Source of the DNA: Lingula anatina
Lineage: Eukaryota; Animalia; Brachiopoda
Assembly: GCA_051362555.1 (NCBI GenBank)
Contig: CM120649.1
Span: 13,702,001 to 13,766,000 of the forward strand
Reading direction: 5' to 3'
DNA: 64,000 nucleotides
Shown piece after piece: positions 2,302 through 60,408 of this stretch. Below the pieces are notes generated by a model that saw only the letters and a program-made list of their open reading frames with translations, did no database searches and was not told the origin of the DNA. The position numbers and the translations under genes are program-made. Position 1 is the stretch's first letter, and each line of letters opens with the position of its first letter.

Positions 2302-3821
2302 ATGGCTGCGGTATTTGCAAACTTTGTTGCTACCGTCTTCTTGATAAACCTGATGATAGCAGACATCCAAGCCGAGTGTTGTCACGCGACTGGTAGAGGA
2401 TATTGTGCGGACTGCAGTTGGGTAATGTTTTATTGTAGATACATGTATTGTTACTTTACATCAGTTGCACTGCTTGACTCTTTGTCATGCACTTTTTGAC
2501 TCATTTTTTAGCATTTAAAAGTATATTTTAATAATGTGCATCTCACCACTATTTGTTGTTTTTTTTAATTGTAAAATCCAACTTTTTTAAGTTGCAAATA
2601 GATACATATTATTATTATTATTATAATTATTATTATTTTTATCAATGACATGTAGGTTTAATCATTCATAAAAGTAGACCTCATTTAACTAAACGGAGAA
2701 AAATAATTGTCTTAATAACGTATTTCCATGGCAATGGAGGTAGTGACATGATGAAGGCGGTTAAGTAAAAGATTAATACCCAATCATCAAACAGTGGGCA
2801 CATGTATGGAATGTGCGATAGACAAAAATGCTATGAGAAAACGCTGATGAAAAATTTGTACTATTTAACATGAAATATAGATTTATGCACTCTCTTTTTG
2901 AAGTCATTATATCAAACGGCCATTTTTCTGGAATAATGTTACACCTATGAATGTTAGTTTTAAAAAAAATTACCAACGCACAAAACTAGGCTTTACGTTT
3001 TATTTGCCCTCTCCAGGTGCCTGTATTCAATTACTGTGGCAAAGGGAAGTGCAATATATTTGGCTGCGCATGCCAGGGAGGGTGCAAAGAAAGCTGTATC
3101 CCAACGACTGTGTAAGTTTTTGTTTTATTTATTTATTTATTTATTTATATATTTATTTTTACCTGAACATGAAAAATGTTTTATTGCATTTCCGTTGTGC
3201 TCCATTCCAGGACTTTGGTACGTTATCCGTATCTCTTGCGAATACATATCACACTCTATCATATCTCACTAACGCATGGGAAAATTGCTCGCGTTTCGAT
3301 GGCGCAGGCAGATGGTGACAAAAGCTGAAGTGAAGCGGCATTATTAATTTGATAGCCCTGTCCATTATTAGTGTGTCCATTCAATGGTGCTGTTGCATCA
3401 AGTAAACGTACTCCGTTTTCGCATGGAACGCAAATCTACTGATTTGACTGACAGTGGATATCTTGATGTCAACTGTGCAGCCTTAATAACTTTTATTTAT
3501 GCTCAGAGTCCAAAAAAGAAAGGCTATTTCATTGAAATGTTGATGCACATATCGTTATTTTCCTGAGCTACCGTAGATCCACGTGTGCAGTCCTGCCATT
3601 GCTTTTGAAAATCTTATTGAATTTCTATGCAGTTTGCTTTCCTAAGTATGTACCCTTAAGCGTTGATATTAAACTTGTCATGAAGAAACTTAAAATCAGT
3701 CTGTAGTCGCTTTCTATTCGCAGTAACCCAACGATTTTTAAATTAAAATTGATTATCGATATATATAGTGTCGATATATATATGGAACTACCATCATATT
3801 TTGATTACATCACAGGGTCAT

Positions 3822-3862
<41 letters not shown>

Positions 3863-4482
3863 AAAGAAAAAGAAGAACAGCAACTTTCTTGCCCCGACCG
3901 GTTTCTTTCTTTCTTCAGGGGGTTTTGTTTATTTGTTACTAGGTGATGTCATAAAGGCTTAAATGTGACGTCTTTAACAATGAGTGTTTAATTGTTACTT
4001 TTACCAATGCTTTTATCTATTCAATGTAGGTTTATACTTATTAATGAATAGATTTTCTTTTATTTCCCTTTCTGTTTGGGTTGTTTCCCTGGTGAATTTA
4101 TAAAATGGGAATACCGTAAAATCCTTGTTTTTGTTCATAGAGCATTCCCTAATGTGCCCACTCACAGACGTGCACTGATATTTAGGTTGTCTTATTTGTT
4201 GTCTGTGAACGGTCATTCTATGTCGGAGAGTGTCTCCAGTTTGTCCTATATAGTTCTCACCGCATCCACTGCAAGTTAATACATAGATTAAATTTGAGCT
4301 GGTGCAGGTGAATGGGTGTTTGATTCTGAATGTAAGTCCATTTTTAAATGTTATATGGCTCCCCTCTTTAATTAGTGGACAGGTGCCTGAAGAAAGAAAG
4401 AAACCGGTCGGGGCAAGAAAGTTGCTGTTCTTCTTTTTCTTTTATTATATATAATATTACTCGTACAGGAAAAACGTTTTCA

Positions 4483-4545
<63 letters not shown>

Positions 4546-4964
4546 CAGGTATCTAACCGGGCGTTGCGTTTGTAATGACAGAAAAAGGGAACTTTCAAGA
4601 CCTCTTACGGGTGCTGACGCAAACGATGTATTCGTAGGCGGGTGAGATTTTTTCTTTATAGCGTGTAGTTTGAAAAAATATAGTGACCGTCACTAATAAA
4701 GGCCGATACGGGACATATTTCTCATAAAATATGGGTAATATATGTAAATGTAGGAAGGTTTTAATACATTTGATTTTAACCTAAAATATTTATAAATGAT
4801 TTTTACTGCGAATTGAAATTAACCTGTACGAATTTAACACCGATGGAATATAACCGTAATGGCAATTTTTCTTCAGTAAATAATCTCGCCAATTTATGCA
4901 ATTCCTTAAATGTGGTCAAATCTAATTATATTTTTTTAGTGATGGATTCATATCTTTGAAGTGA
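2302..4964 (+). CDS. Secreted Diedel-like cysteine-rich peptide precursor (4 coding exons, about 110 aa)
   Basis: Exons 2302-2421, 3017-3111, 4549-4641, 4940-4964 with GT-AG boundaries and phases 0/2/2. Translation: MAAVFANFVATVFLINLMIADIQA-ECCHATGRGYCADCSWVPVFNYCGKGKCNIFGCACQGGCKESCIPTTVYLTGRCVCNDRKRELSRPLTGADANDVFVGGDGFISLK*. It has a hydrophobic signal peptide, and CC..CxDC..YCGxGxCNIFGCxCxGGC is the Diedel family signature. Exons 3 and 4 are less certain than exons 1 and 2. Confidence 0.8.
3855..4452 (-). mobile_element. 5'-truncated Penelope-like retroelement (GIY-YIG endonuclease end, 3' pseudo-LTR and an inverted 5' pseudo-LTR copy), next to (TA)n in intron 2 of the Diedel-like gene
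   Basis: The minus frame 4387-4013 is open: GTCPLIKEGSHITFKNGLTFRIKHPFTCTSSNLIYVLTCSGCGENYIGQTGDTLRHRMTVHRQQIRQP..VSGHIREC..FTVFPFYK..EREIKENLFINKYKPTLNR*. LIY-CxxC-YIGQT is a GIY-YIG of the PLE type. About 65 bp at 3855-3919 is repeated perfectly in inverted orientation at 4386-4450. Confidence 0.88.
3892..3922 (-). ncRNA. Minimal type I hammerhead ribozyme-like motif in the PLE pseudo-LTR
   Basis: Minus strand reads CCCC-CUGAAGA-AAGAAA-GAAAC-CG-GUC-GGGG: 4-bp stem I, intact core, palindromic mini stem III and a GUC cleavage triplet. Stem II cannot base-pair. Confidence 0.65.
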
Positions 4965-5035
4965 AGTTTGATGCCATGGATGAAAACAAGGATGGCGAAA
5001 TTGAAGCTGACGAATTTGACTCCGATCTAATTTAG
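4958..5035 (+). pseudogene. Out-of-frame EF-hand coding segment in the last exon of the Diedel-like gene
   Basis: The frame starting at 4958 reads EVKFDAMDENKDGEIEADEFDSDLI*, with a canonical loop D-x-N-x-D-G-x-I-x-x-x-E. It is shifted relative to the DGFISLK* frame. Confidence 0.7.
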
Positions 5036-5231
5036 AACTTGACAAGCCTTGTTTTTTTTTTTTTTTTTTTTTTTTTATTTAAAAAATTTGACTACTATAT
5101 ATCCCGATACATTGGCAAATCCGTTAAAGTGAAATAATAAGATGTGTTGAACTGGAAGACAATAACCTTTTTTGTTTGACCTAATCTACATTGAAAAAAA
5201 AAAAAGATCTAAATGGTTAAGTGGCAACTTA

Positions 5232-5456
5232 GACCCCATTTCCATAGATTTTAGATCGATCTATCCCTGTGGGGAGCCTCATTAGATTACTGTCAGCTTA
5301 GCGGGCTTAAGCGTCTGTCCCGCCTACTGAAAGCTGTAAGGGGGTAATTAACTATGGTGCGCGCTCGGCGGACTGCAATTTTGCGTGAACCCCCAGGGAG
5401 TTAGGTCGATCTAAATCTTAATCATTGGATCGATCTAAATCTCTGGGAATACACCC
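5232..5456. mobile_element. PIF/Harbinger-like MITE, 225 bp, copy 1
   Basis: TTA on both flanks (5229-5231, 5457-5459); imperfect ~30-bp TIRs (GACCCCATTTCCATAGATTTTAGATCGATC / GATCGATCTAAATCTCTGGGAATACACCC); closely similar copy at 63297-63521. Confidence 0.85.
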
Positions 5457-6429
5457 TTAGAGTGCACAAAGCGGCAGGGAATATTTTCTATAAATCAACC
5501 TCCTTATCATGCTTTTCTTTTATATAATGAAATGAAAACGAAAAGTAGAAACACACAGGTTTATATCTGGAACAGCATTGGTATGGTTTTGTATACATGA
5601 CGTGGTAGAGACGAACTTCTTTTCAAGTAAAACCTTGTTGATTGAGAAACGAGTCGGTGTCAATAAACAGTTTTAACCAACGTTGCCCTGGATATAACTT
5701 GCAAACACATATGCTCTTTATATATGTATTTAATACAAGCGGAATAATAACCAGACAGTAAAGCTGGCAAATAAACAGGCATCAGTTAAAACCACTCATA
5801 TCAGTATATTTAAAGATGGTATTGCAATCTCAGGCAAAACAACGTGTTGGACTGCCAGAGCGCCAACTGACAGATGCAGCTATCAGAATATATAAATTGT
5901 ATAGACAAAGTGCCTATATACCCTGTAAAAGTGTGACAAAAATCGCTGACTTAAATATAGTCTATACATTATTTACACAACGTTTATTTTATTCGCACAA
6001 ATTGGGTTAGCTAGGATAGTTAAATGTATACATAATTAAGGCGCCCAGCTAGATGATTTGTGACTCCGAAAAAAAGTGCCATTTGGCGAACTTTTGTCAT
6101 CGATCGACTGGTTTCCAAAAAGAGCTGTATAAACATGACAATGAAGAGCCAACAGAAGAGAGATGACCAGTATGAGTAAACCCTCCTTAGACTTTTTTTA
6201 TCCAGAACCGCGAAGCATCAGTCTAAACATATATACAATATTAGAGGGGCGTGTCTTATGAAAACACCGCTTATGACATAAAGGAAATTACGCTTACAAC
6301 TGTATGTCTAAACATGATGTTTTAGAATAACTTTAACCAAATATCAACTTAAATAACACATATAAAATCTTCAACACAAAATCATACAACTCAGTGGCTC
6401 TCTGTCTTTACTGTTAGGCTATATTCCAA

Positions 6430-9400: not shown

Positions 9401-10854
9401 ATAGTTGCTGACTGAAAAACCAAATATTATGAATACTTATAGTAAGTTCTTGAATTATGACTGCTTTTCAGTTACTGAAAACAGAAAGCCATATTTTGGT
9501 ACCTGGTGTATTATTTTCTACCAAACTAATACAACAAATCTGACTTTTAAATAACTAATTAAAATTAATGTAAACCTAGATGAAATTTCTAATTAAGATC
9601 TTAATTGCTAAGTGAAAAAACCCAAATGTTATAAATGCACAAGATCATACTGTCTGTTTGTTGAAAATCTAGGTAATAATTCAAGCTGTAATTCTACTCT
9701 TCCTTTTGAGAGACTTTCTCAATCCTTTTTCTTTCGTAGATGCAGACACAGATTCTTGGTACTTTTCTTTAAGCTGTCTGCGAAATGAGTGGCCCCTAAT
9801 GGTAATATATAATTTCACAAACATGCTAAAAAGGTCCATTTTTAATTTGTCTGATTCACCAGCAGTCAGTTCTTGTGTAAATTTGATTGATCTTCCGGGG
9901 TGTCACAGCTACTGGTACATGTAGGAATGAGATTTCCGGTCGTTGGGTGCGTATTTCTGTCCTGTCAGAGACTACCTCACGGGCAGAAAAAGACAGCAGG
10001 TATTGAAGACAAACTTCACACCCCGTTTTTATGAGGTAACGGGGAAAATGCCGAAAACCCCTCAATAAATTTCCACGTGTTGACGGAAACCTGTGTGCTC
10101 GCAACTGCAAAATGGCGGCAATGCTGTATCATAGCAACCACGAGGGGCTGCGAGAATTTGCGTTATCAATGCAGAGAAACAATAGAAATGCACTGAAGCA
10201 CAGCGCGCGCTACCTTGATAATAAGCTGTTCAGACGCCCGTGGAGCTATCAAAACAGATTATGTGAGACAATAGGCGAATGTTTACCCGAACGCACATAG
10301 CTTCAAAGGAAGATGCCGCGTTACTTGTCCTTCTCTATTTAGGTCCATGCTTCAAGGTATCATACACGTATAGTGGTGTTTTCTCAAAAACCGAAACGTG
10401 CAATTTTTCAATTAATGAAATGTACTTTATGAACTTCAACTCGGTTTTACTAAATTTATTTCTTACTGTAAAAAAAGCCTCTAACACGTACAGTCCCAAT
10501 ATTACAATATGATAAATGAACTCACTCATGTCTGCATCTTCACAAGTTCCATCTCGTGAGCATGCGCAGTTGCCCATGGCGCCGCTGGGATCTCCTCCAG
10601 CCCAAAATGACACCTGTTGTCCACGGCGGTCATACCATGCACTGTAGATAGTACCACTTTTCAAGATGACGGAGCCCTTACATTCGTATTTCATGTACTG
10701 GGTACAACTGATTCCTTCTCTGTCCACATACGCAGCCATTTGCTCCATGCTTACTGAAAAAAGTTATGTTCATTGTATCCTATACCGATATATATGCATC
10801 GGACCCTTGTCTCATTTACATGTTTATCCAAATACTTGGTAATTTGCTCCATAC

Positions 10855-10905
<51 letters not shown>

Positions 10906-12147
10906 TAAATATATCAGATTTGCTAGAACAGAAACCTTCTCGTACGCATTTTTCTTTGTCTTGATTAAAGCGTTCAAGTGCACCTTACAACACTTCAAAC
11001 AACAACAAACAAAAGAAAAAAAATTGTCCACATCTGAGCCAATTTTCAACTTCTGGCAAGGTACCATTTCCGCCACACCGATATAACAGAGACTATACTC
11101 ACGTCCATATGACAGTGCAGTGGAGTAGGACTGAGCGTCTTTATAGCCGTCAACATGCGTCCTTGACTCCTGATCGTGGTGGAAAATCGCCGTGGCTGGA
11201 GACGTGGACATATTACAATACACACTGAAAGTTCTCACAGCCCCGGTGCCATCTGGATCAACTGGATACATGCTGCTCGTGCTGCTAATCTGTTGCCATG
11301 CTGAACATGAAGCTAGTGGGGCTGCAAAAAGTGTTTTTTTTTTTTTTTTTTTTGGAAATAGCTGTCAAAATGAAAGCTTTGTTTCCAGGTCCCACCCTCT
11401 GCCCCCAAATTAAAAATGATAAAATCGAAAATGATAATAATACAAAAACGAACGCAGCTGCTTAATGTACACACTCTTATTTGCAAAAGTAAGCCTACTG
11501 AAACGTAATATGCATTGAAAATGCGTGGAGATATAAAGACTTCCAAATTTTGACATGTTTCCAAACATTCATAACGAGCGGTAGCGATTTTTTTAATTGA
11601 ATTATAAACGTACAGTACAGTTAACTCCGCATAATTCGTCACCTTATCAATGAAATTCTCGTTAATTGCCCAAAGCAATTGCAAAACGCTAAAAAAATAA
11701 AACTAATTCATGAGTATTACTCGACCCAAATGTACACCTTCCCCAAGCATATCCAGGTGCCCGAATTATGCGGTGCCCACTATAAATAAAACAACCACGT
11801 ATTAAGCAATTTGACTTACCCACTTCAGAATATAGATAGTCCCAGGCATCGTCCGCAACGAAACTTACACCATCAAAATCGCCGTCAGCCTTGTCGTTCA
11901 CTTCACACGTCTTGCTCCCGCTATGGTAGTTAACAGATCTACAGGAGGCAGGCGTGAGGCCAAGGCAGAGGAGAGTGCAACCCCCTACAGTATGTACTAT
12001 GTGCTGTTTACCGCCACCAACGCCGTTCACCAGTCTAACACCAGGTTTTCGCCAGTATGTTGCATCTGTCACCGCGACTCCGTGATCCGGATAAAATGCA
12101 AGGCAGAGTGAAATTAGTAAAACGTAATATTTCATATGCAGTTTCAT
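6430..12147 (-). CDS. Secreted PAN/Apple + CASPR-type fibrinogen-like domain protein, paralog A (4 exons, 309 aa)
   Basis: Exons 12147-11820, 11321-11103, 10753-10526, 6584-6430, all introns phase 1 GT-AG. Signal peptide; PAN motif CTLLC..CRSVNY....KTCEVN; then SCSAW..YPVDPDG..FSVYCNM..CTQYMKYEC..AWYDRRG..FWAGG..CACS...C...CNCD...WRSDDG...YLP..FGDTG..GYHTIGPLVC, the fibrinogen-like segment typical of contactin-associated proteins/neurexin IV. Confidence 0.9.
6967..10349. mobile_element. Non-autonomous P-superfamily DNA transposon (3383 bp) in intron 3 of paralog A
   Basis: 34-bp TIRs C(T/A)TGGACCTAA(C/A)TAGAGAAGGACAAGTAACGCGG; exact 7-bp TSD CTTCAAG at 6960-6966 and 10350-10356. A CATGG terminus with a 7-bp TSD fits the P superfamily. 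A protein remnant lies on the minus strand at about 9890-9681. Confidence 0.8.
7642..8200. repeat. 189-bp tandem repeat, 3 copies, inside the P-like element
   Basis: AATATGGGCT... starts at 7642, 7831 and 8020; the third copy is more diverged. Confidence 0.92.
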
Positions 12148-14585
12148 TTTTTCTGGTTCACGTATTATTTCACAAAGTATTTCTCTAGTCTGTCTTTCTC
12201 ATTTGCAACGCAGACATTTTAGTATCATTGGTGTAGTTGGTTGCAAAAAAAAACGAGTAGCAAGCCTCAGCGTCACGCTACTTATGACGGCAATGCCACA
12301 AAACTGCTTTATATTTTTACTTAAGTCTGCAATCCAGTTGAATTTTGATCTACTGTCGATTTTGTGCTAAAAGAAAAGGAATGCATTTTAATTGAAAAAG
12401 CGAAACGTCTATAGAATGAAATAGTATCCACGCAATATCACACAATAAACCGGGAAAAAAAGTCGAAGACAAGACATTTATAAATATGGAACGGCCTATT
12501 TATAGGTATCTCGTAGAAAACACACACATTTCATTTCCTGCTCTGGGAACAAAATGCATTTTTTCGATCGAACGCTGAGACACAACTTATTTTTTTAAAA
12601 AATTAACAAGGAAGTCCCTCCATTGTACTACTTCTTTTTGTGTAATCCAAATGTTGGCATATATTTGGTTTTCTTTTCTGCACTAAAGGTGTTTGCTGAA
12701 ATTGAATAAAAACAATGTGGATGTCATGAAAATAGCAGCAACACTTAGAGGTCGATGTGAAATCCAAACATGATGGGAAGACTATAGATTATGATCATCA
12801 ATTGACGAAGAAGGCCAAACACCAAGACGCTGTGAAAATCACCGTTCATTGCTCTCAGTAGAAATAACGTTGCTGATGGTGGATCGAAGGAGAAAGGAAG
12901 TTGGCCAAGTGCGCCTTATGGGTTAACTCCTCCCTCCCCCCCTCCCTCCCACTCCCATTAAACTGTATGACTAAAAGAACGAGACAAAGGCGGTCAGTGT
13001 TACCCATATGCCTTAAGAATTATAGTAACCCCCTTTAGCATAATGGAAGATCCACCGTAATTGCTATGGATAAGCATATATAGCGCAATCCAATTCAGCT
13101 CGATACAACAGGCATAACCTGCACTTCGTATACATTACCCAAAGTTTATGTTTCTGTAAGCCCCTAGCTAAATAAATATGCTGTTCTGGGTGAAATAATA
13201 TACTTGAACTGTACTAAATCGCATGAATATTTTGAAACTTAAGTGACGGTTTTATGTTGTTCACATCCCTCAATGTTAATTTCAAGTTTGTATTCGTACT
13301 TGTTGGTTTTTTTTAATGAAATATGTTCCTCTATTACAAGACACTCTCTTTTAAATTTCTATCAAATTACTGTTCATATTTATGTAAAACTGTAGCGGTT
13401 GTCTGCATGTTCATTTCTGTCATCGTTCTTTTTTTTTTTTTTTTTTGATTGCCTCAGTCCGAATACCAAGACAATAATAATGCGTTTGATTGTGTAGTAT
13501 TTACTCAGGATTGATACTGTTCCTCATAACTTCTAAACTTCGCAAGTTCCTCCATTTGTTGATGAATATAATAGCACCCGATGCTAGGACGAACACACCG
13601 AAGCATGACGCAATAGACAGAAACACTGCGAAGTAACTTCCTGTGACGTCACGAATATAACCTGAAGTATAATAGGGTGTTCAATAAAAACACACTTGCA
13701 AAAACAAACGATGTACATTGTCAGGGACCACAGTAAATAATATATTAATTACACTTTTTTTCAATATTGACACACTCTACATGTAGTAGCGTAAAACATC
13801 CTTATTATAAACATTTGGAAATCAAATTGAATAGAATAGGAAAACTGGAAATTCGTTTGATTAAAAGTGAGACAGCTCTTATAACGCACCCTGACAACAT
13901 GTAGCACATATGAAAAATTAATAATAATAATAATAACAATAATAATAATAATATTGCTGGAAATACCAGCCTGCATATATAAACACGTGTATATATATAT
14001 ACAGTATATCTTATAATTACAACAGACATCATGTACAGCCTGCGCGAGTTCGGTATGAAAGGATGTTTTACCGTTAATGAGACTCTGCAACGTACAAATA
14101 GTGTAAAGGATACATGGTATGTTGCAAAGGACGGAAGTACATGTAGAAGTGAGCAAACGGATTAAGTTGTATTCAGATACAGGCCCAGGACGGCCTTAAA
14201 CTACCTGCCAAATACGGCCCTGTAGTGGCTCCAACGCCTGTACTGAACCGGATAGTAAGGAATAACGCATCTACGTTCTCTCCGTCCATGATTTCGTTGA
14301 CGACAGCATAGTAGCCGGCATTATATGGACCAAAAGCCAAACCTGAGACTAAACATTGTTTCGATATTTGATAGATAAGGTAACAGGAAAATCCCCCATA
14401 GGATAATTCCTTCCACCCCCCACCCACCCCCCAAATATATATTTATATACAAATATAAAGGAAAGAGTATAATGTTAAAATCTTTTCATCCATTTTATTA
14501 ATATTTCTTCGTGTGATGATGCAACTCGAGGATAGAGAATGCTAATTTCATTTAACAAATTATTTTAAATCTGATCAAAACAAAT

Positions 14586-16636: not shown

Positions 16637-17172
16637 CGAGGGTTGATTGATAAGTAGTGAGCCTCATATAGAAGGGGTACACATTTTATAAGTATTTTTC
16701 TTTATTTTTCAACATAGTCTCCTTGAGTATCTATACACTTTTGCCAGCGAGTTTTGAGAGCCTCTATGCCACTTTTATAGAAGCCCTTCTCTTGGCCGTT
16801 CAGAAACCCCTCCACTTCACGTATGACGTCATCATCTGCCACAAAGTGAGTACCTGAAATGGCCTTTTTCAATTTGGGAAATAGATAATAGTCAGAGGGA
16901 GCAAGATCAGGCGAATAAGGTGGAGGTTCTATCAGTTCAAAGCCACACTCGTTGATTGCAGCCATGGCAATGACAGACTTGTGAGCAGGGGCATTTTGCA
17001 AAAGTCACTTGCCTTGCTTATTTGAGAGTGCTACCTCGTCGACATAAACTAACCAAATGACACCAAACTTCGGCTACACACCTTTAAATAGTCAGGGAAT
17101 AGAAGGGCTGAAAAGGGATATCCCTGCTTAACGCCTTCCACACGAGGCTCACTACTTATCAATCAACCCTCG
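16637..17172 (-). mobile_element. Internally deleted mariner element (536 bp) with the transposase C-terminus
   Basis: Perfect 29-bp TIRs CGAGGGTTGATTGATAAGTAGTGAGCCTC and TA TSDs. Frame 17001-16702 reads QNAPAH..PPYSPDLAPSDYYLFPKLK..RWQKCIDTQGDYVEK, containing the mariner YSPDLAPxD motif. Confidence 0.95.
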
Positions 17173-20669: not shown

Positions 20670-23200
20670 TTATCCACGGCAGATCACTGGACCAACTGTA
20701 TGATAGCCTTCTTCAGTTCCCCCTGTGTCTCCGAACTTGACGACAGAGATGGGTAGGTAATTGGACTCAGTGATGACCCCCTCGTCCGATCGCCAGATGA
20801 GGTCGTTTTTGTTACAGTTGCAGCCTGATTGTTAACAACATCAAATTAATACATCAGTGTTAAAGGAAATTAAATACCCTTGTATATTTGTGAGAAAGGA
20901 CCAAAATTTTGTTCTTCAAGCTTCGGACCGCGTGAAGAATGTGGTACTTTCTCACAAATATCCCTTTCTTTTACTATATATCTTAATCCGAGTGCCATGC
21001 TCGATCATTTTTCAATTAGCAGCGAAAGCCTATGATAATCCAGTTTAACTCAATGCAGTACAATGTACTTGACGTCATGATCAGTTAACACCACTACAAA
21101 ATATCATCTTACCTCTAAACATTTCATAAAATCATTGTATAATTCTCAAAATGTCTGAAAATATTGACTTGATAGTAAGTGACACATGCGTCTTGAAGAA
21201 GCACTCTACTTACCTACGCCTGCGCAAGAATCATTTCTTGAGCATGCGCAGTTCGCCATGGTGCCGTTGGGGTCACCACCAGCCCAAAATGGCGCCACTT
21301 GGCCGTGGCGGTCATACCATGCACCGTATAGAATACCCATACCAGAGTAGAGGACTGAGTTAAAGCATTCGTATTTCATGTACTGTGAGCAGCTGGTCTC
21401 GTCCCTGTCCACATATGCTGCTATTTGCTCCAAATTTACTGCAAAATAAATTGTTTACAATGTTTGTGTGTTTGTTTGGTCATTTTTCGGAATTTTCTTT
21501 TTGCGCGCAACTTGTCTCATGTCTAATAAGGAGAAGAAGAAGAATAGCAACATGCAGTAAACAACATAAAGTCTAACATCAATTAATATTGTTCATTACA
21601 CTTTACATTAAAGCGACAATCACTTTTATTTAAAAAAAATACAGCTAGCAGAATATATAAAATCTAAAATAGTTTTAAAAAATGTAACTCTTGATATTAT
21701 GCTGTGTTTTTGTTTTTTTTTTTCACGTACAGGCACAACGAATTATAGGTAATATTTCCAATTGCAGAATTTTCTAAATACTAGGTATATTAACCTTTAA
21801 TTTCTTCTTTCAAAATATAGGTGGTCATATTTGTTGCACGCTCACTAAACGATAATGTTCTTTGCAATATAAGTTTTTGAGATTCTGCAAGCATTACACG
21901 TTCAAATAGCACCATGGAAATACAAGAGTTGGGGATTTTCACTGTCCAGAAAATGAGTTCTGACCTTACACGTGTACAAAAGAGAATATTAAAGGGACAA
22001 AAGCTCTTCGTTTTGGCTTTGGCTGTTTTAGTGGAAAATGGAATATATTGTACTTAAATAGGTTGTTTGCAATGTTTTATCGTGAAATATGAATCTCATA
22101 CGTTATCCCTTTCATGTAATGCGTGAAAAAAACGTAGGGCAACAAAAGGGTTGCCTCTACAACGTGCTCCGCCCAGTAGTAGTAATTACCCCCATATGCC
22201 AGCGTGACTGAATAAGACAGTGGTGGGTCGTAGTCCTTCACCCGGGTTCTCTCTTCATGATCATGATGGAAGGACACAGTGGGGGGAGTGGTTGACATGT
22301 CACAGTACACCTCAAAAGCGCTCACGCCACCGGCGCCATCCGGGTCAACCCAATAGAGGCCGCTAGTGTCGGTTAACTTCTTCCAATCCGAACATGATGC
22401 AGCTAAGAAGACAAATATAGAGTACCTTTTCTTATTATTTAAAGACCTCTCTTGTACGGACTGTTGAATAATTTATGAAAACCATTGATTGGCCAAAGAA
22501 AAAGAATAAAACACGGATCGACCTAGACAATGTGACTGAGATATCAAAGCTCCTGTTATATTCGATCGCTTGAAAAACGAAATTCTGGTCCTTTCTCACA
22601 GATGTAACAAAAGAAAAGACTGAAAATATGTTTTTTTTATTTTTAATTTTTTTTTTTTAATATCTAAAATTAAAGTTATTTTAACACTGATGTATTAATT
22701 TGATGTTGACTCTATCAAATATTGCCAACTTAAAATAGATGAGCTTCAACAAGAATCCGTTCTTCAAGTGATGTCACAGGGACAGTTCTGATAAAAAATA
22801 TAAATAGAAAATAATTTGAAAAAAGTTGAAAAAACTACCTAGAAACGTTATGTGCTTATTTAGACGCACCTATTTTATCAAACAGATAATCCCAATTTTC
22901 ATCTGCAACGACTTCTACACCATCTGAGTCGCCGGCTGCCTTGGTATTTATGTGACACGTCCTACTGTCCCTGCGGTAGCTGACAGATCTACAAGTGGCA
23001 GGAGTTAGACGAAGGCAGAGAAGAGCGCAATCTGCCACACAAAGCACCTGATAAGCCGCAGGTATCTCCCCGTTAGAAACGCCATTTGCCAATCTGAAGC
23101 TACGCTGTATCTTAAAGTATCTTGCTTGAAACGCAGTTTCGGCCTGTGGATAAAGCATGTAGCAGATGGAAAACAAGTAAAATTGTACATGAAATTCCAT
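20670..23200 (-). CDS. Secreted PAN/Apple + CASPR-type fibrinogen-like domain protein, paralog B (4 exons, 307 aa)
   Basis: Exons 23200-22870, 22402-22190, 21438-21214, 20824-20670; same intron positions, phases and motifs as paralog A (e.g. CALLC..CRSVSY..TCHIN; YWVDPDG..FEVYCDM; CSQYMKYEC; CNCN..WRSDEG..GYHTVGPVIC). Confidence 0.9.
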
Positions 23201-25999
23201 CTTCCGGGTTATAATATATCTGTGATGTTAGCTCTCTTGTGTTGAGAATGTAGAAAAGCGCCTAATGTGTTCCGATGTTTTAATTTAGTAGTTGAAAAAC
23301 TGAGATAACACCAGGCGATAGCACGATATTTAACATATAATGTCCGGTTTCCCATGGCAGGGATGCAGCAGACAAGACAAGGCTTTTATTTTGTGGAATC
23401 AATGTTCATTGTTTTGTGTTTGAAATAGGCCAAGTACTCTCTGTTGAGTCAATAAATCTTGAAGCCCATTATCAATCTAAATCTCGAAAAAAGGAATAAA
23501 TATTTGCTTTGAAATAATAAAATTATACTTTGATGAGCCAAAACGTATGAGCACAAGGCGTTGGTTTAAATTACATGCCACGCTACCCATCCATAGGTAT
23601 ATATTTACTACTCGCGGACTTCATGAACCGAATTTACTGAAATTCTTGCATAAAAGCTTTAATGAGGTGTTCATCACATTCCTAACTTTTTCAAAAATTC
23701 TGAACGAGAAGAAAAGTCGGACTTGATTTTCACAGCTGTGTGTGCTAATGTTAAATCGCTCGCGAAAGGACAAGTCGCTGCGCGAGCCTCCCTCGCGACC
23801 TTTGCTGACCCTTACGATTGTCCCCCTGACTTCACATTTGTCACCTTGTTGACAAACACTGACAGATCAGTGACACCGGTCAACTTCACTGTAATACGAC
23901 AACACAGATGTGTTTACGACACACAGTGGCTCTTGTCGCCCGAACTAATCACGGGAAGGGAACAAAAACGACTTAACCCAGCCCCAGAGACTCGGAACAA
24001 AACGTGAAATAGTTACCCCATTTGAAACCGCGAAACCCTGGACTCGGCGACAAATGATTTATAGCTTCTCATTATGTCCCGCGTTTGTTAACGCCCTTTA
24101 AATCTCCGAGGTAAAAAGATGCCATAGCAAAAATCACAACAGTCCGCTATTATGCGCATTATTTGACTGAATAACAAGCAGCTATCGCTAACGGCACAAT
24201 AGCGGCACTTCTTTCACGTTTTGCCTTGAATAGGACGACCCCGCCCGTGACCCTAATCGTCCAAGGTATTGGTGACGAATGAAGCGTGGATAGTCCCGGG
24301 GCATCTGACGATGACTTTGCCGAGACCTGGGGCCTTTTCAAAGAAGAACATTAGACTGAAATCAGTCAAAAATTTAAGACCACAATTTTAGTCTATTTCG
24401 ACGAAGAATAAATCAGCAGCAGTCGACTGAGATGAAGACACCATTGGGATCAAATATGAACAATGCCTATGTCGTTATAAAATAGGTGAAATAATTCATT
24501 TAATTCTAACATCCACAAATTTGGCTTATTCTAACAAAAATATGGCCCTTTAATTCTTGTGCTACCGAAATTTCTTATAAATGGAGGTGTCCTAGAATAG
24601 ATATTGGGGAGGAGGCGCTTCATAATTACTGACAAGATTCGGTTACCATGTTGTTTACCATTTAACATAAATAAAATGCGAGAAGGTCAGAAGTCGTTCG
24701 TTGACGCCGGATACCGTACCGTGCTTATACGTGCATGATTATTGTAACTTTAAAGGGAAAAACGTATCTTTCAACTGATCTTTTGACAATTTCCAGTCTT
24801 AAATGTTCACCAATGTAGAATTCGAATAAGCCGACTGGAACCAAATGAGGAAAAACTGTAGTGATAAACAATCGCTAGTCATTTACCCTTGGATTGACGA
24901 AATAATCGCATAAATAAACACGGATAACCTTCAGGCTTACTAAGCAAGAGGCACAAACAAATATTGGGCTCTCACGACGTAATCACGATATGTACGTAAT
25001 GACGTCACGACTGTCCGTAAAAACAAAGAGCGGTTTTTGAAATGAACATGACGGATAAGTTGGCATTTCTTTCAAAGTTACACGTACTTGTTTTACACAG
25101 TATAGGTATTCATTTCTCGGGACAAAGTTGCAATTGAAGATAAATCTTATTTTTTTCATTAAAAGTTTTGACTTTAAACTGTAAACTATTGTCTATGTAA
25201 CGTCGTGCGCTCTTACTCAACCTGGGGCCCGCGTTCACGGGGTCACGGCAGTGCTTTGGCCACTTTCATAAACCCACGTACATAAACATTCGATTCTGAA
25301 TAAACAACCGCAGTAGCATTATACCCGTTGTAAATATTCATTGTCGTATTGCAAAAAGTCGAGAATCATTTTTTAGTAAACACGACAAACATTAAGCGGC
25401 TTTGTAGTAGAACACTGAACAGTTTTAGTTAAGGGCCCGTGCGTTTACTCGGGGTTAACTCTTTGTTTCGAAGTTTATCGCAAATAAAAAGAAATTTCTG
25501 AAAGGATTTGAGGGCAATTGTTGTTGTTATTCAAGACTGAAAAATAGTTTCAACAATGACGCAGATTGCCTGTAACGCTGTGTCACCCAGATGCGCTGAA
25601 AAAGTTTTAAAAATAAGCACTACTCGCTGAAGCTATGCGAGGACCGCTGATGTGTTACTAGGGGGAGACAGCGGAATGTGATTAAAACCAATTCCTGATA
25701 GCGTTATTTATTCGTGCTCCCGCGTCACAGATGAATCGACTTTCTCCTCATTTGAACAAGCGATAAGCTAAGCAACAGAAATATAAGTCAATATGTTTAA
25801 TCATTTGGTGAATAATTGCACTTTTTTCATATCCCTGTCCCTAAAAATTCGGAACCATTAAGCGACACTGCATCAGTTAGCACATGACAACACGGGTTCA
25901 CGTGAAGAAAGCTCCACCCTCTTTGCCGCATAGAGCCTCGTTTTCGCTTCAACTCACAAGACTGTTGACATCAATACCATGGGAGTTTTTGTCACTACG

Positions 26000-45084: not shown

Positions 45085-48000
45085 TCAACCGATAATCGCG
45101 TCGTTGAGAGGAGGACCGAATATCTCCGGCTTCGTTCCGCAGGCAGCTGGATGTCCACACTGTGTGCATTGGTTGCGGTGTGTCTTACCGCAGGGGCAGC
45201 CTAGGTTCTGGCAGCAGGCGCAGTCAGCGCGTTTGGTGTCCCAGACGCAGGGGCAGCCGGTGAATGTGGCGGTCCAACCGTCTATGCCGTAGTCGGTAGA
45301 GGGTTTAACTGCATGGGGTATAAAATAAGTCTTATGATTACTTACAACTTATCCTTCCAATACGAAATCAAATGCTCTGACTTGTCATTTAATTTGACCC
45401 CCTTCCCCGATTTAATATTATGGCACGTGATACAGTTATGATAATATGATTTGTAGGCCTATCCATATTGAAAATTATTATTGCTATTTAGGCAAAATTG
45501 AGATTACGAATACTCTAATACTCCATCATCATTTTCTTCAGCGGTCCTGCAATACATAACAAATTTAAAGTGCCTGCAAAGTGCAACAGACATAACTTAA
45601 GAAATTAAATAATATAGATGCATAAGTAACTAAGTAAGTACATGTAGGAAAATAAATAATGAATAAATAAATAAACGCTTCCTGTGAAGGTCTCATACCT
45701 GTTCCACAGGTGAATTCTTCCCCACATTTAACACAGTGATACTTGGAACTCGTGGGACACTGGCATCCTCCCAGCTCACAGCACGCGCAGTCTCTCTTAC
45801 TTTGGTCAAAGTAGCAACTGCAGCCCGTCTCAGCCCTTTTTTAATGAAGAGAAAAATCACGGAGTGTTAATATTCTATTAGTCATCTTGAGAGAGACTTA
45901 AATCCCAATTATCTGCAGCTTTTTTTTTTTCAATCGCCTACCCTTCCTCAGTCCGTACATACCATACGTGTTTATAACTAACTAATAAGCAAAATTACAA
46001 ATATCTTGTACATCTTTTGGAACATATTTTCCTCCTTTGATCTTGACTATAACTTATATGAACATAGTGCTAACTCCAACTTTTGAGTAAGTCGAACAAA
46101 TGTCCTTGCTCCAAAGTGAAGTGAAGCAGGTTCTGTCAGTATGTGTTTAATCCGTGTGGTACCAGCAGTACCATATTACACTTTATATACTCCTATGTGC
46201 CCGCGGTACTCACTTCGTCCAGATGTCCCATCTCATCTTATTTTCACCCCCGTACTTGGCCCAGTGGAGGGGGAAGGGCGTGGCCTTGGGGGCGGTGGTG
46301 ATGATAGGCCGGGGAGTGGTGGTGAAATTCGTAGTTTTCGGGGGTGGCTGGGTGGGTACTGAAACTGATCAACCATCGATGGTTAATACCTATGTGAGAG
46401 TGGTCTGTGTTTAGCTAAAAATATACAGTGGATAAAGGAAAAATAAATGCATGTTTATCATTAATTATTTTTCAGTTTGACCTATGCGTTCTATTCCATC
46501 TTTAAAGGGTTTGCTTCATGCCGTCAGAATGGCCTGAACGGAACATATTCTTCAGAAAACATGCCCAACTAACGATATCTTTATCCAAATACACAAATTA
46601 AAAGCTCATTTTGTAAATTTTTGGCTTTAAAAAACGTCCTATTTGCTCGGCCTGGGAGTTAATGAGCTACGTGGTCACGTGGTCCAATGACGACAATCGA
46701 GCCACTGGAGAACAGAGCGTGCTTAGCTGTCAAACTGAGCTGCATTGTCTACCTGTAAGATGACTTCTCTGGCTTCTGATAAAAGTTTATACTCATTCAA
46801 ATCTCTTACCCGAGGGGTCTAAATCCTCGTGAAGCTTTGTAAAACCATTTCCCGTCTAGTCATTTCTTTAACAAGCATTTCATTATGGTTATCCCAAGTT
46901 GTATAAAACACTGCATTTGAATGAGTTAAGGGAAATGTTGATTATTCCATATGAGGTCCATGTTATTTGTGAAATTCAATTTATTTTATTAAACCGCTGA
47001 TACTCCGTCTTGCATACTTTTATTAAACTGAGGTAAACAATGCCCGTTACCTTTACAAGTCCTATCTTAATCATCCATCTACCTGGAACTTCCTTTACCT
47101 CTTAATTAGAGGGTTAAATGGCATTCAATTTGTCTTGCTTGTATCGAACGCACTCTCTATCTAAGCTTTACTCCAGTTATCTCAGGTAAAAATCTACCTG
47201 TGCGTTAGTTACAAAGCGCAGCTCCCGTAGACCTGGGGGTACTAGATAAAATCTGAACACCAGGTTTATCGAGGAGCTATAGAAAGAAAGGAAGAACTTT
47301 TCCTGCACAACTTCATAGGAATTTTAACACGGACTTGATCCAGCTTAGACCTCCAAACTAACAGGGTGACATGAGCAATTTTCACAAACAAATCATAAAA
47401 CTATATTTCAGTTAACCGCCTTTAAAATAAATATACCGTTCTGGGTAAATTAAAATAGTTATTAAATCGCAAGAATATTTTTGACTTAAATGATGATTTT
47501 ATTATTAATGGAAATTAAGCTACTATATGAGGTACATTTGCTGTGATAACGCTGTCCTTCATGTTTTGCGTAAGTCTACATTTTGCTGTATGTGCTTGTA
47601 ATCTTTTTAAATATGTGCGTACAATTTTTGCAGGTCTGGTTACCCCCCTGTTATGTGATGAGAGTATTAATTTGGCAATTAGTTCCTTAGCTTATTTGAA
47701 TAGAATTGCAGTGTAAAATTTTCAACAAGATGTTGGCGAAATAGCCCATTACTCTTTGTAGGTATTTCCCCCGTCAAAGTTTGTCTAAAATTATCTTTCA
47801 ATCTTTACTCTTTCAAAGACAGTATAAAGTTACCTGACATATTTTCGTGTAAACTTAATGACAAGCCAAGTGTCTCCAGTTCATTCCGTACTCAATTTTA
47901 CCCAAGCAAATTTTTTTCTTGAGTAGATCTTTATAGCACGTTGTTATAAGCTTACAAATTTGCAAAAAAAAAAAAAAATTGCGTACTGACGCAGAATTTG

Positions 48001-51000: not shown

Positions 51001-54000
51001 TTCCAATCACCCATTGCTAATGACATTGCCCTGTTAATTTATATTTGAGGACTTTAAAAAGAAATCCAGCAGGTTAATATTTTACCTGGTTAAACCTAAT
51101 GCTTGTGGTGGTTTGGTCGCGTCAACAGAACAGTCCTCACCGACCCAGTTATTGTTGCACACGCATGCGCCGTTAGAGCACCTGCCGTGCTGACAAGGCG
51201 TGGTGCACAAATCAGCAGTCACAAAGGCGGGCATTATCAGTGTTCCTGGAATAGCAGGGTATACGTGAGATAAGCTGTTTTTACGTGTTTATATCTGCTA
51301 GTATACATAGCAGTGTGCACGTTGAATGAGTCAAATGTACATAGTGCTTTGCAACATGGCGTTACAGGAAAGTTCTGACATGAAATACACGTGCAATGTT
51401 GCTTTTATTATTGTTCTCGGTTTGCAAATACCCATCGCTTATTTTTTCGTGACAATAATATACATGTACTAAATACATGTATTAAAAAAATGAAATCGAT
51501 ATTCAAAACTGCTTAGATGAGGTATTTTATCTGAAGACCTTGTGATGGCATATCCATACGTGATGCCTTTTTGCCATGCGGCTTACACTGGTTTTCACTA
51601 TGTTCGTTTCGATAATGTAAAATATTGTAAAGGCATATACGATCAATAAATAAAGGAAAAGTGCTGATAAAAGCGAGAGACATTACCAAGAATATTAAAA
51701 TGCGATAGAAATATAATCAAACTAAACGAAACGCTACCGTCTGTGGCGTTTTTGGTATAAGAATTTGGGTCCTTGAGCACCTTTTCCTGGCACGTGTTTT
51801 CGAAGGCAGTGACAACAGAGGACAGAAACTCCGTGTCTCCATCAGATATCTGAAAAATATATCAGTTTGACCGTTTCGAACGTGCCGGTAACCTGCATAT
51901 GTATATGACTCCCAAGTGTACAGCACTCTAGCAACACAAGGCTTCTATATTTTAAATCCTTCAGCTGCATCACTTTTTAATTAAATGTCTCAGACCAATT
52001 TTATTCTTACTCCTTTTAGAAGGTAAACACAATGAAGCTTTTATATGGCAATCTACTACTGGTATTGTATATTTTATATATCTATTGCTAGATAAATCTT
52101 TATCTCATCTTATTTTAGTATATCGAGAAAATACTTTTACGCATATGAATCTGACGTTATTTTCAAATTATTGATATACTGGTAATATTATCATATTAAT
52201 CTTTCAGTTTTCTAGCTAGTGTTCGCAGTGACACCTAGTGTGATAATCCAGGCCTCGTGAATAAACCGAAACCTTGACTAAAGTTCGGCATGATAATACG
52301 TGTTAATAAGATAAACTTTAATGAATATGACTACCTTCATGTCGTCCACGCATCCTCCTACGATTTCGTTGACGTCTATTTTCCCTGTGGCTAGGCATTG
52401 GGTGTACGCGCTAGACGACTTAGCAGCGTCTGTACACATCTTCAGCGCGACAGCTTCTGTGAGACCGCTCTTTGTGGGCCACGTAGCGGTGAGCGTTGGG
52501 GAATCTAGAGCAAATAGAGAATACATTTAAACATTTGTTTTGTTTTTTATAAAATTGCATTTCACCCTTTTATGATTCTAAGCAAAATGATCACATTATT
52601 TTTATACTCTTATGTCAAAAATTTTCTCCGATCGGTCGGACAAGAGGCCTTAAGGAAATCAAGAGAAAATGAGAAATGCATGTCTTTTATCGTTTTCTGT
52701 TCATTTTATCAAGTTTTACGATTATTATTATTATTATTATTATTAAACCACACATACTTGACGAAATCCATTCAAAGTAAACATGCAAAATAGAATGCAA
52801 ATGCGTCTGTACAAAGCATTCATTCGTTCACAATGTCAAAGAACATAAATTTCCTGCCAATCGTTTTCTGAATATCGACACTCACTTGGGTCTCCGTAGT
52901 CGAAGTTGTACTGGAGGTCGCCGTCAGTGTCTGTGTCTACAAACGTGGTGGTTCTGCGCAAGCGCGATCCTCGGTTCAAAAAACTGGTGATGTCGATAGT
53001 CCTGCTAGCCTGTATGTGTATAAGTAAACCAATGATTTATCATCATGGTAATGAGGTAATCGTGGGTTATGTTGATAAAACATGGGAACTGAAATTACTG
53101 CTTGCAAACACTGTAAGCAAACATTGCAATGATGGGCGTACATCTGCTTTCATTACATGTGGCTGGTATGCAGTCTGCCATTGCTGCCGTGAGTTGCAAC
53201 ATCTACTTACGGGATATCACATTCAACATCTATTTACGGGATATCACATCCAACATCTACTTACGGGATATCACATCCAACATCTCCTTATGGGATTTCA
53301 CATTCAACATGTATACTTACGGGATATCATATCCAACATCTACTTACGGGATATCACATCCAACCTCTACTTCGGGAGATTACATTAAACATCTGCTTAC
53401 GGGATATCACATTCAACATCTTTACGGAATATCACATTCAACATCTACTTCGGGAGATCACACTCAACATTCACTTACGGAATATCACATTCAACATCTA
53501 CTTACGGAATATCACATTCAACATCTACTTACGGGATATCACATGCGAAACTTTGTACATTAAGCTTTTGTAGTCGACTGTAGAGGAAAGCTGCAATAAG
53601 TTAGGAAGTTTTCTTAAAATGTCCCATTGTCAGAGGAACATTCCATTGCGCATACTGATAGCAAAGTGAAGATGTGGAAACATTTGCATGAATACAACAT
53701 AAATGGATATTTAGCATCGCATTTGACAAGAAAAGTATAATAGCAACTTACACGTCTGATGGGATTGTTCTGTCTGTTCTCAGGGCGACAGTCAATTTTA
53801 TTCTCCTGTCTATTACACTGACAGTACATAGGCTTCTTGGGAGGTTCAGGGTCTTTGGGAGGCAGTCGGTCGAACAGGCTCTGCCCTCGTGGAACCCTGA
53901 AGAATGAGATACACTTATGAATGAGCCCAGTTGAGTGAGTTTCAGAAACGAGGAGACCCGGCTTCATCATTTTCATATTTCCATTGCAGTGCACATATTA

Positions 54001-57000
54001 TTGAAAAAGAAACTTGGAAGCAAGCAAAATATTGACGTTTTGCAACATATTCATGTCAATATAAAACACGTATATGTATGCACATTCAGAACAGATGATC
54101 CGCGGACTTACTGACTAAATCAATGCTCTTATTGACTAAACCAGTTCTCTTACTGACTAAATCAATGCTCTTACTGACTAAATCAATTCTCTTACTGACT
54201 AAACCAATTATCTTACTGACTAAACCAATCCTCTTACTGACTAAACCAGTTCTCTTACTGACTAAATCAATTCTCTTACTGACTAAACCAATCCTCTTAC
54301 TGACTAAACCAGTTCTCTTACTGACTAAACCAATTCTCTTGCTGACTAAACCAATTCTCTTACTGACTAAACCAGTTCCCTTACTGACTAAACCAATTCT
54401 TGGAGCTGAGATTTAATCTGTTTAATGGCACCTGTGGAGACGAGAAGACCATCACGGCATGAAACGGCGTTGCTTTTAGGTTCGGTAGGTCATATTTGGT
54501 TCGCGGATTATCTGTTCTGAATATGCTCAATGAAAGAGAAAGATGGACCGGAGACTTAATGGCAGCAAATAATTATATAACAAATAAAAAGAAAATAAAA
54601 CCGTTTATGCTGTTGTTTTATTGCTTTGGTCGATTAAAATATTCTTAATGGAGATAATCGAACCTCCAGCTTTCCGTGAACTGTCTTGGCACCGAGATGT
54701 ACTGTGAGTACGTCAGTCCGTTAGGAGAGGTGAAATCGTCGCCGGAGTATTTGTTAAAAATGCCGCATAAACCGCTGGTGTGAGCATAGTCGTCGCTGGG
54801 TACCGTCATTGTGGCGTCCAGATATTTGGATTTCACATCAACCTTGATAGCAGTCCCCGACGGAAAGAATATCTGGTTTGGCGAATAAATCGATTGTCAA
54901 CTTTAGCAACACTAATATACATATGATAAAAGGTGGTTTTTATTTGATAATTATATTAAGTCATTTATTTACTGGTACTTTTTCATTGATTCACTGCTTA
55001 TTAGATATGCGGAAGTCTTTATCTCTTTAAACACCCGTTCTTGTGCAAAAGTAATACACCAAGGTTGGCAAAAAGGACATCGATTAAAATATTAGATAGC
55101 TAAGTTAGCACCTCGATCAGTTTTCCACTGCTGTCACGCTTTATCAGAGTCCCATTAGCCAGCTGGTACGGGGACTTAACATAATGCTTCACACGCATGT
55201 GATTAACGTTACTGTGGCAGGCGTCAACCACTATGACGTCATTGCCCTCCCTTGCTGACAAGCCGCAGATACAGCTTGCACGGCCGTTACAGTACCACGT
55301 TCGTATGTGAACCTTAATAAAAGGAATATCGCTGTTACTGATATAATGATATTGATACGATGAGTCTTGAAGTAATTAGTCTGAATCAAAATTATTACAG
55401 CAGGAATGACATTTGCCTCTTACACAATAGCTGAAGCCTGCTTAAACTGATGTGTATTAATAATTTGAAAAGAGAGACAAAGTGCGAATAAGAAGAGAGA
55501 GAATCGGGGAACGAGGGGGAGGCAAAAGAACATATTACCCAAAATACCACGCATCGACTTGATTTAAACCCGGTTTACAGATACTAGCAGAACACCCTGG
55601 CGGAATTACCGTAAATAACTAACAATGTGCACGCATTTTTTTTTTAATTTTCTGAACGTAGTGGTATGCGGTGCTTCATGCAATACGGCACTCAAGTAAC
55701 CATTACTATTATATTATATTATTGTAACTCATATTTCTCGATGAACTCAAGTAGCAGCAAGGCATATAAAGATATTGAAAGACATTATGGTTAAAAGCAA
55801 CGTAGAAAATAATAAAATATTAATAACAGATATTATCATTATCAGTAAGAACTGAATAAAAAAAAACAATAAACATACCTCAAAGGGCCTCACATTACTT
55901 TTGGCCATAACATACTCGCCAGCCTCGTAAAAATGGAAGTATCTGAAATGGATAGATGCTTGTAAAACTGTTCGAATATATGATGACTGAGCGCAAGCGT
56001 CTCGATTCCATAACTCGAGATTTACCCGCCCCATATGGGCCTCGATTTAAAAGGTGATTCGCAATACGCGATGCTTTCGAGTTACGGAGCCCAGCGCGTC
56101 CAACGGAAGTCCAAAGCAAGAACGCTGTGTGACAGGAAAGATAGTCCGCTAGGAACCGTAGTCCGCCTTTGATTACTGTGTACAGGTGACATTCGTTCAA
56201 CACACTAACTCAATACTCCGACTTACCGTAACCTGAACTGATCATATGAGACCCCGGACTTCTATTCCATGGACTACCTTTCTGTCACACCGGTAATTTA
56301 ATAATAGCATGTTCAGTATCTATAATTGTACAGTCAGAATCATAAACTTCGCATTGTCTAATTAAATGCATACTAAGCATTTTGAATAATTTAATTAACA
56401 AATGTCAGGTAAAACATTTCACGAACGTTACTTTTATGCAAAATCTTATTTTCAGCGAGCTTACTTTTTTCTATCGAAGGCAGTGCAGTGAGGGTCTCCA
56501 GTGCACTTGCAGCTGTCAGTGTCCGTGTTGATGCTTGTGATCTGAGCGGTAAGAGAGAGGCAAAAACTTCAGTTCATACCTCGACAAGTCAACAAACTAG
56601 GTTTTGTTACGTGGGATATATTCTCAGTTTACAAGGAAAAACAACTGTAACTGTCGACCTGAAACAGAAGACCTGACAGCGTAGAATTGGATTCAAAGTT
56701 CTAAGGCAATGCGAGGGTCCCTATGGTTCATATAACTAGCTGTCTAGTGATGTTTGTTGCACGGTTTTGGGCGCTTCCCTGTCCTACTTTTTAAAATGTG
56801 ACATCACTTACGTAATTTCCCGTTCAGTTTGATTGGTGACGTCAAGAAAAGAAACAGAAGCCACGCCCCTCACCTGGATACTGGGTGGCTGGTACTGGTG
56901 AAACAGGGGGGTCTGGAAGGCGGAGAGTTTCTGGAATACGGCAGACACCTGCTTGGTGCCGTCGGTGACAAAGTCCCTGACTGCCAGTAGTTTGGTTGAC

Positions 57001-58023: not shown

Positions 58024-58058
<35 letters not shown>

Positions 58059-58603
58059 TGACATCACACCCATATCTTACCTTTATGCCAGCAAAGTAGT
58101 GGTTACTCTCTATGGCAGGACTCTTACGGTTTGGAGCATTCAGGAAGTACGCCTTCACTCGGCAGCTCACCTGTAATGCAACATAAGGCAGTCTAACGTA
58201 TTTACAAATGATTATTTCATTGTTTGTTTTATTTTATGCGCGTGTTTGTAGGACGTAAGTAGTTTTTTTGGTTTATCTATTTGTTTCGACAATGAACCTG
58301 TTCATACATATATGTGTTGTAAGGGTGGTTAATAACTACAATGAGAACCAATATATATATAATCCATAGAAGTTTTCACTATGAAGTATTCAACAAAAAA
58401 ACGCGACATCGGGGACACTTACCACCTTGTTCAAATGATGTGAGGCGGGTAACATGTGGATGTCTTTCATGTAGTGGACACGAGTGGTTCCGGTCACCTG
58501 CTGGGGTCTGGACATAGGGGACACGGGAGACGGCTTGTGGTCAAATAACCTGAGGATTTATTTAGACCCAACGGCGTTTTTGTTAAATTTTAAACCAGTA
58601 TAG

Positions 58604-58652
<49 letters not shown>

Positions 58653-60364: not shown

Positions 60365-60408
<44 letters not shown>

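Follow-up and report, generated by a model that had tools for sequence, protein, structure and literature searches.

A mytimycin-type precursor gene with a Diedel-like cysteine core in the brachiopod Lingula anatina, and a possible bridge between two peptide families

Organization of the locus

The window, that is, the whole 64-kb stretch of Lingula anatina DNA that was analysed, contains a small four-exon gene on the forward strand. The gene and the elements associated with it are the following:

2302..2421, forward strand: coding exon 1 (120 nt, phase-0 donor), encoding the predicted signal peptide followed by Cys 26, 27, 35 and 38
2302-2373 (residues 1-24), forward strand: predicted signal peptide, from hydropathy, with the putative cleavage site placed by the family pattern
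3017..3111, forward strand: coding exon 2 (95 nt, phase 2), encoding a core similar to subdomain SD2 of Diedel (Pfam PF13164, 31.1 bits; aligned with PDB entry 3zzo)
3852..4453, no strand assigned: MITE-like insert within intron 2, bounded by perfect terminal inverted repeats of 68 nt and adjoining TA runs
4549..4641, forward strand: coding exon 3 (93 nt), encoding the terminal C78-x-C80, DRKR and the opening part of the first EF-hand loop
4577-4588 (residues 82-85), forward strand: DRKR, in exon 3
4940..4964, forward strand: coding part of exon 4, encoding the remainder of the first EF-hand loop, where the RefSeq protein (P0001) finishes
4962-4964, forward strand: stop codon TGA, in exon 4
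4967..5035, forward strand: out-of-frame remnant of a second EF hand, past the stop codon, with a match to Pfam EF-hand_5

AG acceptors and GT donors are present at all three exons 2302-2421, 3017-3111 and 4549-4641, and the reading frame is continuous. The original prediction, made from the window sequence, of three in-frame exons that yield a leader, 12 cysteines and DRKR is thus borne out, with GT-AG boundaries throughout and compatible phases. That prediction overlooked the fourth exon, from 4940, and the EF-hand remnant, and it took the gene to be hidden, whereas RefSeq already carries the locus as LOC106157098 ('uncharacterized'), with two protein accessions, XP_013388053.1 and XP_013388060.1 (predicted, 110 aa). 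The RefSeq protein differs from the translation of the window at two residues, 43 and 68. A T-tract and an AG that abuts the ATG suggest a 5' non-coding exon ahead of 2302, and weaker acceptors are also predicted near the tail of the gene in the splice-site list. No second copy of the gene was found within the 64-kb window. A dispersed repeat of 241 nt occurs at 5228-5468 and 63293-63533 (93% identity), the former copy lying in the likely 3' UTR region of the gene.

Several other features were observed in the window:

~10335-12198 and 21206-23227, reverse strand: two tandem paralogous genes separated by ~10.7 kb; both combine a signal-like start with a PAN domain and a COLFI/fibrinogen-like piece
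16702-17004, reverse strand: DDE transposase fragment (Pfam DDE_3, E 2.3e-05, below the cut-off)
45085-45840, reverse strand: pair of exons containing a Cys-rich repeat, GCxC...DCACC...GCxC...CxxCG, for which Pfam gave no match at E 0.01
~51082-61303, reverse strand: multi-exon extracellular gene with uromodulin-like D8C, VWD and EGF pieces

A Diedel-like cysteine core

The cysteines of the spliced protein are at positions 26, 27, 35, 38, 47, 52, 57, 59, 63, 67, 78 and 80, with the core motif CNIFGCACQGGC, which occurs once in the window and not at all in 20 shuffles. Exon 2 contributes Cys 47, 52, 57, 59, 63 and 67 together with the loop N53-I54-F55. The cysteine array crosses both exon junctions and is kept in all 11 Lingula family members listed; jointly with the motif count and the Pfam score of exon 2, this conservation places the observation beyond chance. 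Against the Pfam Diedel family, PF13164, exon 2 alone scores 31.1 bits and the whole protein 22.0 bits (cut-off, 21.3), the match being limited to model positions 34-65 of 76.

Diedel is also the top match in the PDB, both by sequence (3zzo; E 1.1e-04 for the Lingula protein and 4.4e-12 for the family profile) and by fold. The structural model of the Lingula protein (pLDDT 78.7) consists of two short strands, with no helix past the signal peptide. In the PDB, this model matched Diedel alone (3zzo; E 0.08, rmsd 2.4, 32 columns), and comparison with 3zzr gave Z 3.7 and rmsd 3.4 over 52 aligned residues. Its top viral structural match is ORF106 of Xestia c-nigrum granulovirus (rmsd 1.5, 32 columns), and an Atlas structure search with P0001 yielded nothing at TM >=0.4.

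As described in PMC3307722, Diedel consists of two subdomains: SD1, a four-stranded sheet plus a helix, and SD2, made up of the first four residues and the loop 60-89, with four disulfides. The loop Asn77-Ile78-Phe79 is exposed and was proposed to be an interaction site (PMC3307722). Diedel (CG11501, 3zzo/3zzr) shares with the Lingula protein eight core cysteines and the CNIFGCxCxGGC loop. These eight cysteines are invariant in 51 sequences of the family and would correspond to the four-disulfide SD2. Neither the SD1 helix nor the RGD motif is present in the Lingula protein, and the KR site and EF-hand-derived tail of the latter are not described for Diedel in the accessible portions of the papers cited here. 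The remaining four Lingula cysteines are absent from the Drosophila member of the family (P0010, Drosophila obscura) and common to mytimycins, so that the formula of Diedel plus one extra cysteine pair is not supported; the 10-Cys pattern of Diedel is not reproduced in the Lingula protein. What holds of the proposed Diedel-family precursor is homology at the level of the Pfam domain, along with a secreted-type leader and a dibasic site; the homology is confined to SD2.

The Pfam and structure comparisons thus lead to Diedel, and with it to the idea that the released peptide is a cytokine that signals to the animal's own cells, damping immune or cell-death pathways. Diedel in Drosophila is induced by infection and damps IMD, JAK/STAT or apoptosis. 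Consistent with such a role are the retention of the N-I-F loop, the site proposed for Diedel (PMC3307722), the almost neutral charge of the predicted mature peptide, and the cytokine-like activity suggested for some mussel defence peptides (PMC10138031). We nevertheless consider signalling of this kind unlikely. The RGD motif, which Diedel needs for integrin binding (PMC9116668), is missing; the mature part of the model is free of helices, whereas in Diedel it is the subdomain of sheet and helix that is chemokine-like; and the layout of the precursor is that of mytimycin. An expanded family in which the net charge of the domain ranges from -3 to +8 would also be more in keeping with effectors than with the ligand of a single receptor.

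Relationship to mytimycins

Mytimycins are mussel peptides. In their precursors a signal peptide of 23 aa precedes the mature peptide, which is 54 aa long and contains 12 Cys; a dibasic site and a C-terminal EF-hand extension follow (PMC8004829). The backbone consists of 10 Cys with optional pairs, type II having 12, and in 2021 the family was described as restricted to Mytilida, its structure and disulfide links as unsolved and the EF hand as a later acquisition (PMC8004829). Mytimycin has a mass of 6233.5 Da (PMC6628016) and inhibits Neurospora crassa and Fusarium culmorum; a table in a 2023 review lists it as having 'no homologs among known AMPs' (PMC10608444).

The cysteine array of the Lingula protein, CC-C-C-C-C-C-C-C-C-C-C, is identical in order to that of type II mytimycins (PMC8004829, Table 1). 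In both, the dibasic site comes right after the terminal CxC (DRKR at 82-85 in Lingula). A mature peptide of ~6.2 kDa, which for Lingula is predicted, and membership of a multigene family are likewise common to both. The CNxFGCxCxGGCR motif is also present, by eye, in Modiolus and Perna mytimycins (PMC8004829, File S4). CxDC and the terminal CxC occur together in 17 of 172 domains, namely 11 from Lingula, three from Mytilus and three unnamed. The ends of three partial genomic mytimycin rows (B12, L6 and L7) match the codon position and phase of Lingula intron 3, so that the two genes probably share the phase-2 intron of the first EF loop. The differences lie in the host phylum (brachiopod versus mussel), in the spacing of the last four cysteines (3-3-10-1 in Lingula versus 1-8-6-1 in mytimycin F1), with C67 offset in the Mytilus rows of the alignment, in charge at pH 7.4 (+0.4 versus +6.3 for F1), and in the EF-hand pair of the tail, which is intact in 4 of the 11 Lingula members listed and deleted and frameshifted in LOC106157098.

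Sequence searches recovered the same relationship. A profile built from 38 family members, none of them from Mytilus, retrieved P0166, which is mytimycin F1 letter for letter; P0001 and P0166 are 28% identical over 108 aa in pairwise alignment (E 8e-09). In hhalign, the Lingula and Mytilus profiles matched with 99.4% probability at full length and 97.5% for the Cys domains alone. The Lingula domain HMM, built without P0001, gave 21-28 bits for all four Mytilus domains (best of 3000 shuffles, 7.2) and 35.6 bits, above the mytimycins, for the Drosophila member. In the reverse direction, the mytimycin-only domain HMM, which comprises four Mytilus sequences that all carry extra tandem Cys, gave P0001 15.4 bits, only just more than the best shuffle (14.5), and placed fungal, springtail and unnamed proteins, which reach 41.8, level with any Lingula member.

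Mytimycin, which the original prediction overlooked, is the closest architectural match of the Lingula gene. We class LOC106157098 as mytimycin-type rather than as a canonical mytimycin because its EF-hand tail is broken.

A family of core plus EF-hand proteins

A word-index search with the single Lingula protein matched only itself, whereas HMMER over 1.84 billion proteins gave 56 matches at E<=0.001. The profile without Mytilus described above, built from 38 of these 56, gave 255 matches among 4026 candidates, of which the best 120 were examined. One match, P0038, proved to be a spurious repeat protein, and the alignments do not include it. The core motif is present in 174 of 181 collected proteins; 123 of the 174 carry at least one EF-loop motif behind the core, a proportion enriched by the inclusion of EF hands in the search profile, and a dibasic site lies between core and EF loop in 68 of the 123. 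Among the named matches listed, core and EF hand are combined in Branchiostoma (4 of 4), Mytilus (4 of 4), springtails (7 of 8), fungi (18 of 20) and nematodes (1 of 2).

At least 11 Lingula members, counted from protein databases, are among the matches listed, all with 12 Cys, which makes at least 10 paralogues of LOC106157098. A dibasic site follows the last cysteine in 10 of the 11 listed, and two EF loops are present in 4, although some of the short tails may be annotation errors, P0002 departing exactly at the intron position. The amphioxus, springtail, nematode and fungal entries, labelled 'EF-hand domain-containing' or 'Protein Diedel', resemble Lingula in having a signal peptide, the core, often KR, and an EF-hand pair; most are without the CxDC and terminal CxC extension of Lingula. 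No function for these entries was found in the literature searched.

A tree was built from 52 rows, comprising the named taxa and three of the unnamed sequences but neither the remaining unnamed rows nor the tandem protein P0068. In it, Lingula forms one group (90/89) and Mytilus another (95/99), with an unresolved backbone. The tree contains no clade joining Lingula and Mytilus and hence lends no support to orthology of the two.

Some members have unusual architectures. P0068 (Orchesella dallaii) consists of two core-plus-EF-hand units in tandem, and in P0029 a Diedel-type core is joined to an LRAT domain. Family members also occur as single ORFs on metagenome contigs (the P0016/P0059/P0060, P0019/P0061 and P0046 clusters), and those of the P0016 cluster have the 12-Cys extension as in Lingula and mussels.

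Decay of the EF-hand tail

The first EF-hand loop of LOC106157098 is four residues short. The remnant of the second, at 4967-5035, matches Pfam EF-hand_5 (E 4.5e-05, 23.2 bits, below the cut-off of 25.9) and aligns over 21 aa with the end of paralogue P0007 at 62% identity. The two loops start 16.7 codons apart, whereas the starts are separated by 25-138 residues, with a median of 35, in the 59 collected proteins that have exactly two loops. This difference suggests that a deletion took out the linker and shifted the frame.

Two ways of explaining the frameshift away were rejected. Phase-0 donors at 4628 and 4634, which might rescue the second EF hand by splicing, would run into a stop at 4940. 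A one-off assembly error was rejected, as contigs from runs X1 and X3 align gap-free, although X3 may itself be the source of the assembly, and as the stop codon of the RefSeq allele is at the identical position.

Runs X3 and X4 also contain another genomic copy, alike in 52 of 60 letters, that matches solely 4967-5026; its 30 upstream letters differ and, by eye, contain no stop in the EF frame. This copy probably represents a paralogue whose tail is intact.

The two tail lesions raise the question of whether LOC106157098 is a decaying duplicate on the way to becoming a pseudogene, with no working peptide. There is precedent for this in mussels, in which 18 of 106 mytimycin variants are pseudogenes (PMC8004829), and run X4 contains no piece over exons 3-4, although a gap of this kind proves nothing. 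However, the 12 Cys, the leader, the KR site and all six splice signals are intact, the lesions lie solely behind the cleavage site, two RefSeq protein accessions exist at the locus, and one mytilid mytimycin is without the entire EF-hand tail (PMC8004829). Decay of the gene as a whole therefore appears improbable to us.

Predicted processing and function

The hydropathy of the leader is 1.7-2.6 in nine-residue windows beginning at residues 1-14. Leader and family pattern are compatible with a putative mature start at residue 25, one residue ahead of the CC, which would imply removal of the signal peptide after A24. The chain would then fold with six predicted disulfides: four in the core, as in SD2 of Diedel, and two additional, one of them probably in the C78-C80 region, as in 'bond 3' of mytimycin.

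The consensus site of furin calls for Arg at P4. DRKR lacks this residue, so that of the release at RKR originally proposed the dibasic site itself stands, and a convertase specific for the KR pair is the likelier enzyme. Cleavage after K84-R85 followed by trimming would yield residues 25-82, a 58-residue peptide of ~6.2 kDa (6212 Da reduced, pI 7.7, charge +0.4 at pH 7.4, all for the RefSeq allele). The tail of the precursor would be thrown away once cleaved, which would account for its decay in LOC106157098 while the peptide stayed intact.

The reading that we prefer, to which we assign a probability of roughly 0.55, is that LOC106157098 encodes a precursor of mytimycin type, predicted to be secreted and cut at KR, and that the resulting 58-residue peptide serves in antifungal defence through target binding. 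As the peptide is nearly neutral, binding to a target via the exposed N-I-F loop would be likelier than membrane lysis. Several points weigh against this reading: the marginal score of P0001 with the mytimycin-only HMM, the higher score of the Drosophila member than of the mytimycins with the Lingula HMM, the tree, in which Lingula and Mytilus do not join, and the low charge beside that of F1, although published mytimycin charges start at 0 and reach +10 (PMC8004829). Moreover, the EF-hand tail, a hallmark of mytimycins, is broken in LOC106157098, and fungi carry the family too, with EF hands in most of the named fungal matches listed, so that antifungal action need not be ancestral. As a candidate defence peptide, the assignment made in the original prediction is upheld. 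In five of nine RNA runs (X11, X14, X17, X12 and X19), 0 reads covered exons 3-4, with 6-30% of each run sampled and no control stretch, so that these zeros carry no weight on expression.

A secreted peptide with a role outside immunity, in shell, mucus or development, or else a toxin, is a reading to which we give little weight. The EF hands of the family and its spread into fungi show that function is not fixed, and Diedel-like proteins are known from caterpillar venoms (PMC11335235). Against this stand the immune-related roles of both characterised relatives and the loss of the calcium-binding tail in LOC106157098. We know of no venom system in brachiopods, and no evidence supporting the toxin-like role originally suggested was found.

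A bridge between mytimycin and Diedel

The broader interpretation, which we hold to be fairly probable, is that mytimycin and Diedel are offshoots of one ancient family of secreted animal and fungal proteins, with the Lingula genes as the missing link. The ancestor would have had a signal peptide, the eight-Cys core, KR and an EF-hand pair. The EF hand would accordingly be ancestral rather than acquired by mussels; the structure of Diedel would show how mytimycin folds and how its core disulfides pair; and a defence-peptide scaffold, with an N-I-F binding loop held in common, would be the source of the fly cytokine and of the viral copies of the latter. The central Cys block of mytimycin is under purifying selection (PMC8004829); the N-I-F loop exposed in Diedel apparently falls within this block.

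Direct comparison of the two families gives little. None of the four Mytilus proteins matches PF13164 at E<=1, the sequence of mature mytimycin F1 has 0 PDB matches and no Atlas match, Diedel is not among the best 60 of the 67 matches for the Mytilus profile, and the Drosophila member scores 5.6 bits with the mytimycin HMM, inside the shuffle range. The Lingula profile, by contrast, reaches both mytimycins and the Drosophila Diedel member. This failure of direct searches from mytimycin to reach Diedel may be why the link was missed. By structure, the model of mature mytimycin F1 (pLDDT 84.2) has Diedel as its top Foldseek match (E 2.1, probability 0.44, rmsd 1.3, 31 columns), and among 48,161 PDB chains Diedel is the sole one at Z>=2, weakly (Z 2.8, rmsd 3.7, 49 aligned). 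The alignment behind this model was drawn from the same family and AlphaFold2 was probably exposed to the 2012 Diedel structure, so that the structural support is not independent of the sequence evidence.

The link appears not to be in print: it was not found in the literature searched, from which most subscription journals were outside the scope, so that a prior mention is possible. Brachiopods are not mentioned in the passages covered of two reviews (PMC12466427 and PMC10608444). Papers that mention mytimycin together with Lingula or brachiopods apparently concern other topics; a 2018 survey of Lingula immunity may already list the genes.

LOC106157098 itself is an ordinary paralogue, annotated yet unnamed, whose propeptide has decayed; it adds a new member to the mytimycin-type, Diedel-core family. 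Databases already label some non-insect proteins 'Diedel' or 'Diedel-like', including one Lingula paralogue, and the novelty therefore lies in the bridge rather than in the locus. The Lingula gene and its ten paralogues sit between two families that have both been treated as lineage-restricted, Diedel having been described in 2012 as confined to flies, aphids and insect viruses (PMC3307722). The gene extends mytimycin-type precursors to another phylum and brings to view a family of amphioxus, springtails and fungi that has gone unstudied, and the structure of Diedel becomes a testable template for the disulfides and the active loop of mytimycin.
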